Shown piece by piece: positions 2,976-18,204 of a DNA stretch of 26,189 nt. Made by a program: the position numbers and the translations under genes. This DNA is from Candidatus Dadabacteria bacterium. GTDB taxonomy: Bacteria > Desulfobacterota_D > UBA1144 > Nemesobacterales > JAJCZQ01. A model generated the notes under the pieces. That model searched no databases, had not been told where the DNA came from, and worked only from the letters and a program-made list of their open reading frames with translations. The DNA lies in the NCBI GenBank assembly GCA_030624695.1, contig JAUXJP010000001.1, forward strand, positions 1-26,189, written 5' to 3'. The number at the start of each line of letters is the position of its first letter. Positions within the stretch are counted from its first letter, which is position 1.

Positions 2976-3769
2976 CTTTTTGTATTGATTGGTTCAATGA
3001 GAATATTTCCTGTTTGTTCACTGCTATGAATATTTACATTCACAGAGAATGCGTCCTGAATAATTTCTTTTGTAAATACCTCTTCAGCTTTCCCAAACCC
3101 TTTAATTTCACCTTTATTAATTATTAATATTTTGTCACAGTACCTGGAAGCGGTATTAAGGTCATGAATGGCTGAGATTATGGTCTTCCCTTTTAATGTT
3201 AGTCCCTTTAGTATCTCCATTATCTGAATAGTATGAGATACATCAAGACTGGAAGTTGGTTCATCGAGAAAAATAAATTTAGTCTCCTGGGCAAGAGCCT
3301 TTGCAATGGTGACAAGCTGTTTTTCTCCCATTGAGAGCTGGTTGGCAAATCTTTCTGAAAAATCTTCTATCCCCGCCGCGGTCAGGGCTTCTTCAGCAAT
3401 TTTATAGTCTTCTTCATTTTCAAGATGAAATCTGCTCAAGTGGGGTATTCTTCCAAGCAGTACAGTTTCCAGCACTGTTGTTGGGAAGTCCAGGTTGTTT
3501 TCCTGGGGGACAAATGCAATTTTTTTGTATAACTCCTTTGGTGAATATTTATGAAGATTAAGGTCTTCTATATAGATCTCCCCGGAGTCAGGTTTTAGCA
3601 GTCCAAGGATTAATTTGATCAGAGTGGTTTTACCCGCGCCGTTCGGGCCGATTATGCCCACCAATTCACCCGGGGAAACAGAAAAAGTAATATTGCTAAT
3701 AATATTTCTGGAGTCCCTGGTAAACAAGAGGCCCTTTACTGTGATTGCAGAATTACTCATATAATCCAC
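2972..3769 (-). CDS. Iron-siderophore/heme/cobalamin ABC transporter ATP-binding subunit (FecE/BtuD-like)
   Basis: Walker A GPNGAGKTT, signature variant LSMGE, Walker B IFLDEPT, H-loop AIHDL. The start may instead be ATG at 3760. Confidence 0.92.
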   Translation of the reverse strand: MDYMSNSAITVKGLLFTRDSRNIISNITFSVSPGELVGIIGPNGAGKTTLIKLILGLLKPDSGEIYIEDLNLHKYSPKELYKKIAFVPQENNLDFPTTVLETVLLGRIPHLSRFHLENEEDYKIAEEALTAAGIEDFSERFANQLSMGEKQLVTIAKALAQETKFIFLDEPTSSLDVSHTIQIMEILKGLTLKGKTIISAIHDLNTASRYCDKILIINKGEIKGFGKAEEVFTKEIIQDAFSVNVNIHSSEQTGNILIEPINTKS

Positions 3770-11942: not shown

Positions 11943-13703
11943 ATGAGTTTGCCAAAATTTTATAATTTAAACGATTACATAGATTATCTGGAAAAGCGTG
12001 GTGAAGTTAAAAGAATTACAACCGAGGTTGATCCTGATTTAGAAATAACTGAAGTTGCCAACAGGGTAGTAGAAGATAACGGGCCTGTTCTGATTTTTGA
12101 GAATGTAAAAGGGGCTGATTTTCCTATGGCAATAAACCTTTTTGGTACTGAGGAAAGGGTTGAGCTTGCCCTCGGCAGAAAACCCAGAGAGGTTGGTGAA
12201 GAGCTTGTAGAAATATTTCAAAAATTAAATCCCCCTTCATTAAAGTCATTATATTCTGTTTTCTCAAAAGCCTATGGACTTGTAAACCTTAGAACAAAAA
12301 AAGTTTCTTCCGGTATTGTTCAGCAAAACGAATTTGAACCTGATCTTTCAAGATTGCCAATAATAAAATGCTGGCCAAAAGACGGTGGAAAATTTATAAC
12401 CCTTGGACTTGTCCTTACACAAGACCCCCTGACAAACAGAAGAAACCTCGGCATTTACCGTATGCAGGTATATGACAAGAATACAACCGGTATGCACTGG
12501 CATCCTCATAAAGGCGGAGCTGCACATTATCATGAAGCCGGAAAACTAAACAGGGACCTCGAAGTGGCTGTAATACTCGGGGGAGACCCCAAAATGATAT
12601 TCAGCGCAATTGCCCCACTTCCTGATGGAATGGATGAACTTGCCTTCGCCAGTTACCTGCGTGGAAAACCAATTCCCATGGTAAAAGGTAAGACAATATC
12701 ACAGTCAGTACCAGCAAATGCTGATTTTATATTAGAGGGGTTTGTTCCGCAGAATGTGCTTAGAGAAGAAGGCCCGTTCGGCGATCATTTTGGACACTAT
12801 TCAATGGAAGCAGACTTTCCCATTTTTAAACTGAATACTATTACACATAAAAACAATCCTATTTTCCCGGCAACAATAGTAGGTAAACCTCCCAAAGAAG
12901 ATGTATTCCTGGGTATGGCTGCGGGAGAGATGTTTTCCCCATTAATAAAAATTATTCAGCCTGAGGTCATTGATATGTGGGCTTACTACGAAGCGGGTTT
13001 TCATAATCTGCTAGCGGTATCTGTAGACGAGAGATACCCTAAAAACGGTATAAAGATAATGCTTGCCTTATGGGGGACCGGACAGCTTCTTCTGACAAAA
13101 TGCATGATTACAGTATCAAGTGATATAGATCCAAGGGACTTTAATTCGGTATTAAACGAGGTCGGAGAAAATTTTGATCCCCGCGAAGACTTTCTCCTTA
13201 TCCCCTGGGCACCACTGGATACGCTAGATTTTACAAGTGGTAAATTAAATGTGGGCAGTAAAATGGGAATAAATGCTTTAAGAAAACCAGATAATCAAAG
13301 AAAAACCTATGCAAAGAAAGTTCCCGATCCGAGAGCAAAGCATAAAGAGATAATTGATTTCAGACTTCTGAATGGCGGTTTTCTCGTGTTACAGTCAAAA
13401 AGTGACCCAAAGAAACTAATAAAAAAAATGTTTAAGACCCCGGGATACAAGAATGTAAGGATCCTTGTGGTTGTAAGTGCAGATATTGATCTGCATAATG
13501 ACACGGACCTTATTTGGGGTATATTTACAAGATTTGACCCCTATCTTGATGTTGTCTTTGAGAAAACAGAGTTAAGAGGATCGGCAGTTCTTTACGATGG
13601 CCGCATGGGGATAGATGCCACGGCAAAAAAATGGTATCCTGACGTTATAGAAATGTCAGATGATATAAAAAACAAGGTGAGTAAGAAATGGACCAAATAT
13701 TAA
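11943..13703 (+). CDS. ubiD: UbiD-family decarboxylase, futalosine pathway (MqnL-like), long form with duplicated C-terminal domain
   Basis: EVDPDLEITE, NLFGT, LPIIKCWPKDGGKFIT, RNLGIYRMQ, EGPFGDHFGHY, TIVGKPPKED; 586 aa. Confidence 0.93.
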   Translation: MSLPKFYNLNDYIDYLEKRGEVKRITTEVDPDLEITEVANRVVEDNGPVLIFENVKGADFPMAINLFGTEERVELALGRKPREVGEELVEIFQKLNPPSLKSLYSVFSKAYGLVNLRTKKVSSGIVQQNEFEPDLSRLPIIKCWPKDGGKFITLGLVLTQDPLTNRRNLGIYRMQVYDKNTTGMHWHPHKGGAAHYHEAGKLNRDLEVAVILGGDPKMIFSAIAPLPDGMDELAFASYLRGKPIPMVKGKTISQSVPANADFILEGFVPQNVLREEGPFGDHFGHYSMEADFPIFKLNTITHKNNPIFPATIVGKPPKEDVFLGMAAGEMFSPLIKIIQPEVIDMWAYYEAGFHNLLAVSVDERYPKNGIKIMLALWGTGQLLLTKCMITVSSDIDPRDFNSVLNEVGENFDPREDFLLIPWAPLDTLDFTSGKLNVGSKMGINALRKPDNQRKTYAKKVPDPRAKHKEIIDFRLLNGGFLVLQSKSDPKKLIKKMFKTPGYKNVRILVVVSADIDLHNDTDLIWGIFTRFDPYLDVVFEKTELRGSAVLYDGRMGIDATAKKWYPDVIEMSDDIKNKVSKKWTKY

Positions 13704-14794
13704 AAAATATAGAAACAATCTGCACTGATAAGGACTTACTTCCTATCCTGGATAAAGTAGTCAATGAACAACGCCTTTCCTTTGAAGACGGCCTTACTAT
13801 AATGGCAACTCCTGACCTTCATTCCGTGGGCATGATGGCTGACTATGTTAAGAGAAAAAAGAGCGGGGACAAAGTTTATTTTGTTGTAAACAGGCATATT
13901 AACCCGTCAAATATTTGTGCTATTTCCTGTAAATTCTGTGCATTCGGTACGACTAAGAAATCGGCCAATGCATATGAACTCTCACATGAGCAGATGCTTT
14001 CAATGATAAGTGATGAAATAAAGGAAGTACATATTGTAGGCGGTCTTCATCCTGACTGGGATTTCAAGGAATACCTGGATATCGTAAGGATGATTAAAAA
14101 GAACTACCCGGATACTCATGTAAAGGCATTTACCGCTGTTGAAATAGACTGGTTTACAGAGATAGCCAAACTTTCAATCGAGGATGTGCTACTTACACTT
14201 AAAGATGCAGGAGTAGATGCGCTTACCGGCGGGGGTGCAGAGATTCTTCACCCTGATGTCAGAAAAAAAATATGTGCGCCTAAAACAGTTGCAACACGCT
14301 GGGAAGAGATTCACAGGATAGCCCACAGGCTTGGGATCCCGACAAATGCAACAATTCTTTATGGCCATGTGGAAGAACCGTTTCACGTAGTTGACCATAT
14401 GGAAAGACTAAGAAATATAGAAGATGATTCGCCGGGATTTTTTGCTTTTATCCCTGTATTATTCCAACCTGAAAATACAGGCCTTAAAAATATAAAACCA
14501 TTTCCCGCTTCCTATGATATGAAGCTACATGCACTTGCCAGGCTTTACCTCGATAATTTCCCGCACATCAAGGCCTACTGGATTACTCTTGGTGAAAAAG
14601 CTGCCCAGGTTGCGCTTCATTACGGTGCAAGTGATGCAGATGGCACTATTATTAAAGAAAAAATTATTCATGATGCAGGCGCCTCTTCGGATATTGGCCA
14701 CAGCAGGGACTTTATGGTCAACATGATTAAGAATTCGGGTTATACACCTGTCGAAAGAGACGCCCTATATAATGAAGTGCAGGTTTTTAATTAA
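13688..14794 (+). CDS. mqnE: Aminofutalosine synthase MqnE (radical SAM)
   Basis: NRHINPSNICAISCKFCAF (CxxxCxxC), HVKAFTAVEI, GGGAEI, NAT.LYGHVE, ARLYLDNFPHIKAYW and ERDALYN. HxKAFTAVEI and IKAYW favour MqnE over MqnC/CofH. Confidence 0.9.
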   Translation: MDQILKNIETICTDKDLLPILDKVVNEQRLSFEDGLTIMATPDLHSVGMMADYVKRKKSGDKVYFVVNRHINPSNICAISCKFCAFGTTKKSANAYELSHEQMLSMISDEIKEVHIVGGLHPDWDFKEYLDIVRMIKKNYPDTHVKAFTAVEIDWFTEIAKLSIEDVLLTLKDAGVDALTGGGAEILHPDVRKKICAPKTVATRWEEIHRIAHRLGIPTNATILYGHVEEPFHVVDHMERLRNIEDDSPGFFAFIPVLFQPENTGLKNIKPFPASYDMKLHALARLYLDNFPHIKAYWITLGEKAAQVALHYGASDADGTIIKEKIIHDAGASSDIGHSRDFMVNMIKNSGYTPVERDALYNEVQVFN

Positions 14795-14845
14795 TATATT
14801 TTCAATCTGTGCCCACTCAAATTATTCACCACAAAAACTAAAATT

Positions 14846-15024
14846 ATGAAAGCCAGAAAAATTGTATTAATTCCCGGGGATGGAATAGGCCCTGAAATCT
14901 GCGAAGCGACAAAGAACGTATTGTCTGCAGTATGGGTGAAACTACACAAGACCTTGATGGAAACCTCAATACCCCCGATTTCGTGAGGGTACTGGTCCAG
15001 CATATACTTAAAATAAAATTCTGA
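14846..15024 (+). pseudogene. Internally deleted remnant of an isocitrate/isopropylmalate dehydrogenase-family gene
   Basis: ATG 14846 gives MKARKIVLIPGDGIGPEICEATKNVLSAV, the family N-terminal signature, with a stop at 14984-14986. A different frame from 14935 reads GETTQDLDGNLNTPDFVRVLVQHILKIKF* (stop 15022-15024), resembling the family C-terminal T.DLGG...T.EF motif. Confidence 0.8.
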
Positions 15025-15039
15025 CCCTTCGTTTTTAAT

Positions 15040-15393
15040 CTATAGGAAATTATAAATTAAATTAAAATAATATTTCAAATTGGGAGAAGATTCCAGTATT
15101 CTCATTTTGGATGACATTAAATTGATATCAGGGAATAGAAAATCATTGTAGCCCTCGGCTACCTGTTTAAAATCCTCCAGCTCAAGCAAAGGTGGTTCAT
15201 GTATTTTCAGGGGCCTTACATTCTTTTCAGCACCTGTAATTCTTATGCCGTCTCCTTCTACTCTGGCAAGGAACCATCTATCGACAGTGGGTTCGGGAAG
15301 TTCTATTCCATCGCCAACTTTATCTAAAATTATTTTCCATTCGTCTTCTTTAGATTCGCTGAAATCTAGTTTTCTATCTTTTAATACCGGCAT
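15040..15393 (-). CDS. Hypothetical protein (117 aa)
   Basis: Strong SD AAGGAG (15401-15406) before ATG at 15393 and a perfect TATAAT (15429-15434, minus strand). Globular-looking composition. The ORF track's longer start is at 15411. Confidence 0.75.
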   Translation of the reverse strand: MPVLKDRKLDFSESKEDEWKIILDKVGDGIELPEPTVDRWFLARVEGDGIRITGAEKNVRPLKIHEPPLLELEDFKQVAEGYNDFLFPDINLMSSKMRILESSPNLKYYFNLIYNFL

Positions 15394-15459
15394 CTTTATA
15401 CTCCTTATCACATTTAATTGAAAGGGTTATTATACATAATAAAATAAAAATTATTTATT

Positions 15460-18204
15460 TTAATTTAAATGCTTTTTCAAATATTGGGCTGTATGGGAAT
15501 TTTTTGATTTAAGTATCTCCAAAGGAGTTCCCTCGGCAACTATATTGCCTCCGTTTTCACCCCCATCGGGGCCAAGGTCGATAATATAATCTGCTGATTT
15601 AATCACATCAAGGTTGTGTTCAATAACTATCAGGGTGTTTCCATTGTCTACAAGCTTGTTTAGCACATATAGGAGTTTATTTATATCCTCACTGTGCAGG
15701 CCTACGGTAGGTTCGTCCAGTATGTAAAGTACACCGCTTGCTGTTTTGCGTGATAGTTCCCTTGCGATCTTTATTCTCTGGGCTTCACCCCCGGAAAGTG
15801 TAAGTGCAGATTGACCAAGCCTTAGATAGCCAAGGCCTACGTCCTGCAGGATTTTTAACATCCTTACTATCTTATGATGTTCGAAAAAAAATATTACCGC
15901 ATTATCTACAGTAAGGTTTAATATTTCGTCAATGTTTTTACCATTATACTTATAGCCAAGTATATCTTTCTTAAATCTTTTACCGTTGCATTCCTCACAA
16001 GTAACGATTACATCTGCAAGAAAAAGCATTTCTATCTTTTGTCTACCCTCACCCTGGCAGCTCTCACAGCGTCCGTTTTTAACATTAAAAGAAAAGTGTG
16101 AAGGAGTAAATCCTTTTAGTTTTGCCCGCATGGGAGAGGAAATAACTTTTCTTATTTCATCATATACTTTTATATAGGTTACGGGATTTGATCTTCCCGA
16201 CCTTCCAATAGGAGACTGATCAATGAGAATAATGTCCGATATAAAGTTGTCGCCTTTTATCTTATCTACCTTACCGGGTTTTTCCTTTTCACTTCTAAAT
16301 TTTCTAATCAGGTTTTTGTAAATTACATCGTTTACGAGTGAACTCTTTCCTGATCCGGATACACCTGTGACGCACGTAAATTTACCAATTGGTATAGAAG
16401 CATCGATGTTCTTTAGATTGTTTTCTTTTGCCCCTGATATGGTTAGATACTTACTTTTTCCATTTCTTAATCCTTTGTTTTGTTCTATATATTTTTCACC
16501 GGAAAGATATTGCCTGGTATAAGAATCTGTTTTAGATCTGATAAAATTTTTGACCCGGCCAATATATACTATTTCCCCTCCGTGTTCTCCTGCTTCAGGC
16601 CCGAGTTCTATAATATTGTCGGCAGCCATTACCATATCGTGATCATGTTCTACAACAAGGATTGTATTGTTACGGGATTTGAGTTCAAAAATAATTGATA
16701 TCAACTGGTTTATATCTTTTGGGTGAAGCCCTATAGAAGGTTCATCAAGTACGTAAAGTGTTTCAGTAAGTTTGGAACCCAGTTGGCAAGCGAGGTTGAC
16801 TCTTTGGCTTTCACCACCAGACAGTGTCCTGGAGAGCCTGGATAAAGTAAGGTAGCCAAGCCCCACTTTTATAAGGAATTCGGACCTGGAAAGTATTTCA
16901 TTTATAATATCTTCAGATATAGATTTGTCATATTCCGAGAGGTCCAGATTCATGAAAAAATCATAAAACCTGTATATGGTTATTTCAGAAAGTTCATGGA
17001 TATTTTTATTGTTTACCCTTATGAATAAGGACTGTTCTTTTAATCTGCTTCCATTACAAGATTCACATTTAACTGAGGACCTGTATCTGCTCAGGAAAAC
17101 CCTTACATGCATTTTGTAACTTTTTTTTTCAAGACGCTTGAAAAAACCGTTAACGCCCTTGTAGTTATTTTTACCATTAAATACAAGTTCTTTTTGTTTA
17201 TTGGTTAATTGACAGAATTTTTTGGAAGTATCAATGCTGTTTTCTTCCGCAAACTCTATAAGCCGCCTCATGTGTATTTTATAAGAAGGCTTGGTAAATG
17301 GTTCAATTGCTCCATTTTTTATGCTGAGTTCGGGATTTGGAATAACAAGTTCAGGGTCAATCTCCAGATTGTTTCCGAAACCATTACATTCGGGGCAGGC
17401 ACCCTGGGGACTGTTAAATGATAAAGATGCAGGTGTTGGTTTTACAAACTTAAAATTACAGTCTGTGCATTCAAAACCGTCTGTATAGTTGTAAATCTTG
17501 CCCTCTACAATGGTTACAAATAAACTATTTGATTCCTTAAAGGCAATTTCCAAAGCTTCAATCAACCTTGACCTGGAATCTGTATCAAGTAAGACCCTGT
17601 CAATAATTAGCTGGGCATTTACCGGAAATGAATCAATATCCTCAAGTTCAATGTAATCTGAATCCGCATAAGCCCTGCTAAAACCCTTTGCAAGATAGTT
17701 TGCCGGACTGAAACCTTCTTTTACCGGTACAGAGATTATACATTTTTTTCCGTTTTCGTTTTTATATGTTTTTTCTGCAATAATATCCGGTGTGTATTTT
17801 ACTATTTCTTTGCTGCATCCGGGGCAAAAGATCTTTCCTATTTTTGAAAATAGTACCCTCAGGTAGTCGTTAATTTCTGTTGTTGTCCCGACTGTGGAAC
17901 GGGAGTTTCTTATAGTGTTTTTACTTTCTATAGCTATTGCAGTTGGAAGGCCTTTAATATCGTCTACGTCCGGGCGGTCTACACGTTCAAGGAACTGTCT
18001 TGCATATGTTGAAAGACATTCAATGTACCGCCTTAGCCCCTCGGAGTAGACTGTGTCGAGTGCGAGTGATGATTTGCCCGAACCGCTAAGCCCGGTAACC
18101 ACGGTATATTCACCTCTTGGTATTTTTACATCAATATCCTTTAGGTTGTTTTCCCTTGCTCCGCTGACCTCTATGTATTCCTTTTTAATTGTTTTCGATG
18201 TCAT
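15460..18204 (-). CDS. uvrA: Excinuclease ABC subunit A (UvrA family, divergent copy)
   Basis: Two ABC ATPase modules (GARENNLK/TGLSGSGKSS and GAKENNLK/TGVSGSGKSS), LSGGESQR and LSGGEAQR, LDEPS/LDEPT, and Zn-binding CxxC pairs. Confidence 0.95.
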   Translation of the reverse strand: MTSKTIKKEYIEVSGARENNLKDIDVKIPRGEYTVVTGLSGSGKSSLALDTVYSEGLRRYIECLSTYARQFLERVDRPDVDDIKGLPTAIAIESKNTIRNSRSTVGTTTEINDYLRVLFSKIGKIFCPGCSKEIVKYTPDIIAEKTYKNENGKKCIISVPVKEGFSPANYLAKGFSRAYADSDYIELEDIDSFPVNAQLIIDRVLLDTDSRSRLIEALEIAFKESNSLFVTIVEGKIYNYTDGFECTDCNFKFVKPTPASLSFNSPQGACPECNGFGNNLEIDPELVIPNPELSIKNGAIEPFTKPSYKIHMRRLIEFAEENSIDTSKKFCQLTNKQKELVFNGKNNYKGVNGFFKRLEKKSYKMHVRVFLSRYRSSVKCESCNGSRLKEQSLFIRVNNKNIHELSEITIYRFYDFFMNLDLSEYDKSISEDIINEILSRSEFLIKVGLGYLTLSRLSRTLSGGESQRVNLACQLGSKLTETLYVLDEPSIGLHPKDINQLISIIFELKSRNNTILVVEHDHDMVMAADNIIELGPEAGEHGGEIVYIGRVKNFIRSKTDSYTRQYLSGEKYIEQNKGLRNGKSKYLTISGAKENNLKNIDASIPIGKFTCVTGVSGSGKSSLVNDVIYKNLIRKFRSEKEKPGKVDKIKGDNFISDIILIDQSPIGRSGRSNPVTYIKVYDEIRKVISSPMRAKLKGFTPSHFSFNVKNGRCESCQGEGRQKIEMLFLADVIVTCEECNGKRFKKDILGYKYNGKNIDEILNLTVDNAVIFFFEHHKIVRMLKILQDVGLGYLRLGQSALTLSGGEAQRIKIARELSRKTASGVLYILDEPTVGLHSEDINKLLYVLNKLVDNGNTLIVIEHNLDVIKSADYIIDLGPDGGENGGNIVAEGTPLEILKSKNSHTAQYLKKHLN

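Follow-up and report, generated by a model that had tools for sequence, protein, structure and literature searches.

What remains at 14846-15024, immediately downstream of a mqnE-like gene in a Dadabacteria genome, is a 179-base segment that a sequence-only reading had described as the head-to-tail stump of an isocitrate/isopropylmalate dehydrogenase gene. The locus raises the questions of which gene stood here, whether its loss is a genuine allele, how it came about and what it would mean for the organism. Here, we conclude with high confidence that the segment is a pseudogene of a third Iso_dh paralog, closest to NAD-dependent isocitrate dehydrogenase (NAD-IDH), from which 856 bp are missing, and that this genuine allele segregates in a natural population beside an intact allele and a 590-bp deletion allele.

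Anatomy and neighbourhood of the remnant

The window, that is, the whole stretch of DNA analysed (26,189 nucleotides), is the entire contig C1 of a 1.38-Mb MAG (265 contigs, 83% complete). Features of the locus are given below; L072 and L034 are contigs of the same species that carry the intact gene and the 590-bp deletion, respectively.

13688..14794, + strand: mqnE-like radical-SAM gene, 368 aa (Pfam Radical_SAM and CofH_C), upstream neighbour of the remnant and synteny anchor
14791..15003, - strand: antisense ORF across the remnant, 70 aa, with counterparts of 73 and 86 aa opposite the longer and the intact alleles
14795..14845, + strand: spacer from mqnE to the start codon of the remnant, 51 bp, as long as its counterpart in the intact allele
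14846..14932, + strand: N-terminal remnant, codons 1-29, with the IPGDGIGPE nucleotide-binding motif (Pfam Iso_dh profile positions 1-29; aligned to L072 3501-3587 with 3 differences in 87 bp)
14846..14986, + strand: 46-aa chimeric ORF from ATG 14846, made of 28 native residues, V29 and a 17-residue out-of-frame tail (WVKLHKTLMETSIPPIS)
14931..14933, + strand: deletion junction, from three-row alignments against L034 and L072
14932..15024, + strand: 30-aa ORF from ATG 14932 in a different frame, reading MGETTQDLDGNLNTPDFVRVLVQHILKIKF
14933..15024, + strand: C-terminal remnant, comprising the two 3' nucleotides of codon 315, followed by codons 316-344 and the native TGA stop (aligned to L072 4444-4535 with 3 differences in 92 bp)
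15040..15411, - strand: conserved, convergent 123-aa ORF, downstream synteny anchor, 15 bp past the stop of the remnant as in the intact allele
15460..18204, - strand: uvrA, 914 aa, downstream synteny anchor (Pfam UvrA domains on the L034 and L072 copies)

The remnant keeps 58 of the 344 codons of an Iso_dh-family gene, and both of its termini align to intact 344-aa genes, one in the same-genus genome G001 and one on L072, which bears out the large internal deletion proposed from the sequence. The first 28 residues of the 46-aa ORF are MKARKIVLIPGDGIGPEICEATKNVLSA; codon 29 has changed from Ala to Val through C>T at 14931, and 28 of the first 29 residues are the same as in the intact same-species allele. 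The C-terminal piece reads GETTQDLDGNLNTPDF... and carries the Iso_dh C-terminal T-x-D-L-G-G...T-x-E/D-F helix out of frame with the start; translated from ATG 14932, it begins MGETTQDLDGNLNTPDF and ends ...KIKF at stop 15024. In the old frame two of its three changes are non-synonymous (A>V and S>F), and 27 of 29 residues match L072.

With regard to family membership, Pfam PF00180 (Iso_dh) matched the 46-aa peptide over profile positions 1-29 of 348 (E 1.8e-5) at 24.6 bits, under the 27-bit gathering cut-off, so that a whole-domain match (>27 bits, about 340 residues) was not reached by the N-terminal peptide; the 30-aa C-terminal peptide alone, too short to score, had no Pfam match. The intact G001 protein matched window positions 14846-14947 with its residues 1-34 (76% identity, E 1.4e-10) and positions 14920-15018 with its residues 311-343 (79% identity, E 3.9e-10), the latter in agreement with the earlier assignment of the second-frame peptide to the C-termini of the family. 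Judged by these matches and by the alignment to L072, the Iso_dh likeness of both pieces is beyond chance.

The flanking genes define the locus well. The final intact gene in a ubiA-ubiX-81aa-ubiD-mqnE row is mqnE, whose protein is identical on 6 other contigs and 94% identical in G001. Downstream, the 123-aa ORF has counterparts in G001, L034 and L072 (117-123 aa among relatives); no Pfam or NCBIfam match was found for it, and an exact look-up of its sequence was also empty. A promoter/terminator scan of 14600-15500 revealed nothing particular to the remnant. It should be noted that eleven L034-specific SNPs are packed in 92 bp (window 15093-15184) at the 3' (C-terminal) end of this minus-strand ORF, which could be either a patch of recombination or a hypervariable terminus of the 123-aa protein.

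Three alleles and the origin of the deletion

Contigs with a MqnE identical to that of the window, namely L034 (JGI 3300023284) and at least three further assemblies, bear a larger Iso_dh stump, which in L034 and three other assemblies was annotated as two ORFs, an Iso_dh fragment of 108 or 112 aa and, behind it, one of 47 aa; on a fourth, short contig the 112-aa call stands alone with the same 512-bp spacing. A search with the longer Iso_dh fragment returned full-length proteins 96-97% identical to it, one of them on contig L072 (ENA ERZ23498479), which belongs to the same species and has the exact architecture of the window: mqnE (ending at 3449), a 51-bp spacer with 2 differences from the window, the 344-aa gene (starting at 3501), 15 bp, the convergent small ORF and uvrA. 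In G001, an intact 344-aa Iso_dh gene (L025:2244-3275) likewise lies between mqnE and a convergent small ORF plus uvrA. The intact orthologue sought directly after mqnE in relatives was thus present within the species (L072), and at the same site within the genus (G001). A 281-aa sulfotransferase-family ORF (Pfam Sulfotransfer_3 and Sulfotransfer_1; L025:1376-2221) is also located between mqnE and the intact gene of G001 and is absent from the species of the window.

G001 (about 81% DNA identity) is too diverged for placing breakpoints, and L034 and L072 were used as references instead. Between the window and L072, DNA identity was 98.5% in the 2990 bp before the deletion and 98.7% in the 3272 bp after it, with a single gap of 856 bp that corresponds to L072 3588-4443, or nucleotides 88-943 of the 1035-bp gene (codons 30 to 315). 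Since 856 mod 3 = 1, the frames of the two remnant halves differ. The missing middle of the gene was sought elsewhere in the bin and not found, only the leuB and icd paralogs giving matches. The earlier estimate that about 85% of the gene had been removed in one deletion is therefore close in extent (83% lost, as a single gap against L072), and the nested 590-bp deletion in the same species makes two events about as probable as one.

The latter is the lesion of L034, which in comparison with L072 lacks 590 bp (L072 3797-4386, codons 99-296), wholly inside the 856-bp gap of the window. AAGA, within GG(T/G)AAGA, is present at both breakpoints in the parental sequence, and one copy is left. On its sequence, this loss is a textbook microhomology deletion. 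Relative to L034, the window is without a further 266 bp across the 590-bp junction (L034 5246-5511), and 590 + 266 = 856. Thus, as judged from assembled sequences, one uncultured species harbours the intact allele together with those lacking 590 bp and 856 bp.

The junction of the window itself is different. The left parent is perfect through 14930 (...TCTGCAG) and the right parent is perfect from 14933 (TGGGTGAAAC...), whereas the TA between them (14931-14932) represents the left parent's CA after C>T or else 2 nt of filler; rooted on G001, the C>T at the junction is derived in the lineage of the window. The junction is therefore either blunt with an adjacent C>T or carries 2 nt of filler. 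Microhomology had been suspected at GGGTGAAA, a suggestion that failed against the two parental references: in the intact allele this string is wholly C-terminal (codons L315-G-E-T), and the N-terminal side continues differently, as GCAGCAGGTGCCAAG. No clean microhomology was found at this junction in the alignments to L034 and L072, the breakpoints having no bases in common; the closest shared words are TATTG, 8 nt upstream and in register, and GGTG, out of register, neither of which reproduces the observed product. Compared with microhomology-mediated deletion (slipped-strand or alt-EJ-like), the sister 590-bp allele, with AAGA at both breakpoints, is a good likeness, whereas the junction of the window is not. 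An IS or mobile-element cause was rejected, no foreign sequence being present at the junction, as was an intron, intein or programmed frameshift, since coding sequence is missing and not interrupted.

Could the junction have been created by an assembler that collapsed a full-length gene? The genome is a fragmented MAG with strain heterogeneity, which would be the setting for such an error. However, exact look-ups of the 46-aa product and of the antisense 70-aa ORF led to contigs L070 (JGI 3300040963) and L071 (JGI 3300023223), respectively, in each of which the ORF was called as a gene and the junction is identical to that of the window. Over 3.3 kb, L070 and the window are separated by 30 SNPs and one 37-bp indel; L071 has 10 SNPs against the window in 1.1 kb. 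Because three separate assemblies, from different samples and from strains about 1% apart, share the junction, it should be regarded as a real allele; moreover, no repeat able to mislead a graph assembler was found at the breakpoints, and at least four more data sets yielded assemblies of a different deletion allele. We therefore consider an artefact extremely improbable, and the 856-bp lesion is genuine as judged from assembled contigs of diverged haplotypes. An intact copy may exist in the same sample on a contig that was not binned, the bin being 83% complete, which would mean polymorphism and not error. With regard to the 37-bp indel, L070 is without 37 bp inside the ubiD-like gene (window 13442-13478; L070:1633/1634), giving ORFs of 531 and 32 aa. 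With it, the operon of that strain carries two frame-shifting deletions; the ubiD of the window (586 aa) is intact.

The number of deletion events behind the 856-bp gap is something we infer, and a single event and two nested events appear about evenly balanced. One explanation, to which we give an even chance, is a single 856-bp deletion from the intact gene, independent of the 590-bp allele, in which case the gene would have been inactivated at least twice in the species. The substitution pattern points in this direction: the stump of the window has 6 differences in 179 bp from the intact allele, all on the branch of the window, and that of L034 has 3 in 445 bp (Fisher p 0.019), and the two share none of the 8 variable sites in 14795-15039, compared with 58 of 110 over the whole 6.3 kb. 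In addition, the intact parent fully explains the junction sequence. On the other hand, the gap of the window exactly encloses the 590-bp gap, and when the neighbouring mqnE is rooted with G001, 9 derived sites are common to the window and L034 (other pairings 1 and 1), so that the two deletion haplotypes are sisters there, which would fit a shared first lesion.

The latter observations are what one would expect if the 590-bp microhomology deletion had killed the gene and a 266-bp deletion across its junction had later trimmed the lineage of the window, an explanation that we place somewhat short of an even chance. The two lengths add up to that of the gap, the outer sequence is the same, and the mqnE haplotype places the window with L034. 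Progressive erosion is also the usual course of dead bacterial genes, which are under deletion bias. However, the two stumps are unequal in substitution density and without common derived sites, and the first junction would have been erased in the window, leaving no direct trace.

The excess of substitutions around the stump deserves attention. Window-lineage substitutions amount to 6 in the 179 bp of the stump and 29 in 6262 bp overall (binomial p 1.5e-4); 11 of the 29 fall in 14767-15068, and L070 and L071 share every such substitution inside the aligned stretch 14780-15060. From its pattern, this excess could come from prolonged neutral decay, from import of a recombined tract or from error-prone repair at the deletion alike. 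The earlier view that the event was recent can be maintained at the scale of the species only, given the identical junction on haplotypes about 1% apart and the 6 lineage-specific substitutions of the stump.

Identity and distribution of the lost paralog

To which branch of the family the lost gene belonged can be judged from its intact orthologues. For that of G001, the best NCBIfam models were those of NAD-IDH, PRK08997 (421.5 bits, cut-off 510) and TIGR00175 (381.6 bits, cut-off 432.4), with the LEU3_arch and AksF (homoisocitrate) models close behind; it scored under every equivalog cut-off in NCBIfam and is thus a family-level member only. The nearest solved structures to the L072 allele were PDB 6lky ('putative isocitrate dehydrogenase, NAD-dependent'; E 7e-101) and human IDH3 alpha (PDB 5gre; E 3.6e-96). 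Relatives bear the JGI name 'isocitrate dehydrogenase (NAD+)', and homologues labelled Dadabacteria were found at about 74% identity. The likenesses to NAD-IDH suggest that the intact gene may encode an NAD-dependent isocitrate dehydrogenase. Compared with the small homodimeric/mitochondrial-type NAD-IDH (about 335-345 aa), the 344-aa L072 protein aligns end to end, whereas the G001 orthologue is under the equivalog cut-offs, and the copy of the window has its 58 codons and no catalytic core. We found no literature on structure 6LKY or on isocitrate dehydrogenase in Dadabacteria.

The sequence-only reading had offered either the loss of a TCA, Leu or Lys pathway enzyme or that of a redundant paralog. 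A search for other icd and leuB copies showed that leuB (498 bits, cut-off 353) and one NADP-icd (665 bits, cut-off 567), the latter beside acnA in an acnA-icd-mdh row, are intact in the genome, and the lost gene is therefore a third paralog. No other copy of the lost paralog was found in the bin, the best matches being leuB (34% identical) and icd (42-52% identical). An apparent second icd, a fragment beside mdh on contig C96, was rejected as the same locus as that on C58, the contig ends overlapping by 351 bp at 98% identity. These ends (G000 C58:1-400 and C96:7850-8268; L002 and L003) represent one acnA-icd-mdh locus broken by strain heterogeneity; the overlap indicates that the MAG combines strains differing by about 2% and has one NADP-icd and not two.

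Among 40 relatives, every genome in families f1 and f8 has an orthologue (51-78% identity), as do the majority in f2 and some in f4 and f7. Matches did not exceed about 40% identity in the sampled genomes of f3, f5 and f6, among them the smallest of the panel (1.2-1.6 Mb), and in some of f2, f4 and f7. Within the same panel, adjacency to mqnE was confined to the genus of the window and, in convergent orientation, to G002. No conserved gene context was observed for the orthologues in other families, their neighbours (SurE, VTT, TonB and NuoE/F) being uninformative. Genome streamlining in marine Dadabacteria is the subject of a published paper (PMC8115339).

Fate of the stump and meaning of the loss

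Loss of codons 30 to 315 would remove the whole substrate, metal and dimer core of the enzyme and shift the frame; within these codons we presume the Iso_dh Arg triad, the Tyr/Lys pair and the Asp metal ligands to lie. No enzyme could be made, because the core is removed and the frame is shifted, and at most a 46-aa chimeric peptide would be translated, from the tail of the mqnE operon.

Whether the stump has been retained because one of its products (46 aa, 30 aa or the antisense 70 aa) functions as a small protein was also considered. The native start and the operon context are kept, and ORFs were called as genes in two JGI annotations. However, the 46-aa ORF ends in sequence read out of frame, other products (108/112 and 47 aa) come from the 590-bp allele, two of the three C-terminal changes are non-synonymous, substitution density is raised and not lowered, and there is no family match. 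A function of this kind is very improbable, and the 46-aa chimeric ORF is most likely a non-functional by-product (the sequence-only reading had likewise judged a functional peptide less likely), a conclusion to which the absence of the catalytic core also contributes. Similarly, the 70-aa antisense ORF is most likely spurious, a compositional artefact: opposite the Gly/Pro-rich N-terminal motif, the complementary strand is open by chance. In annotation, the two ORFs called as genes here (46 and 70 aa) should be marked as pseudogene.

The 856-bp allele segregates in a natural population alongside the intact allele and a second null allele (590 bp, AAGA). The lost paralog appears to be dispensable: its loss is probably tolerated, because leuB and NADP-icd are kept and several related families lack the paralog. 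A stronger possibility, which we consider unlikely, is that loss of the NAD-IDH-like gene was selected for and not just tolerated. On that view the species would have acquired two null alleles independently, and the 856-bp one would have reached haplotypes that differ by about 1%, perhaps carried by a recombination tract of about 300 bp (11 clustered SNPs, 14767-15068). If true, it would mirror the repeated losses in related families with smaller genomes.

In comparison with internal-deletion pseudogenes of bacteria, the locus is similar in its frame-shifting loss, the intact orthologue in close kin and the raised substitution density of the stump, and it shares with reductive evolution the small genome and the fact that related families have lost this gene repeatedly. 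It is unlike reductive evolution in that three allelic states are found within one species at about 98.6% identity, the loss being not yet fixed. This is ordinary pseudogenisation, and its sole distinction is the coexistence of three allelic states in one uncultured species. For metabolic reconstruction, the strain of the window would have the NADP-type isocitrate dehydrogenase only, whereas sister strains would have two. The locus provides a well-anchored case of still-polymorphic gene loss, in which public assemblies allow recovery of the ancestral allele, of the two breakpoints and of another null allele; no concept is changed by it, and it could aid the population-genomic study of genome reduction in this clade.
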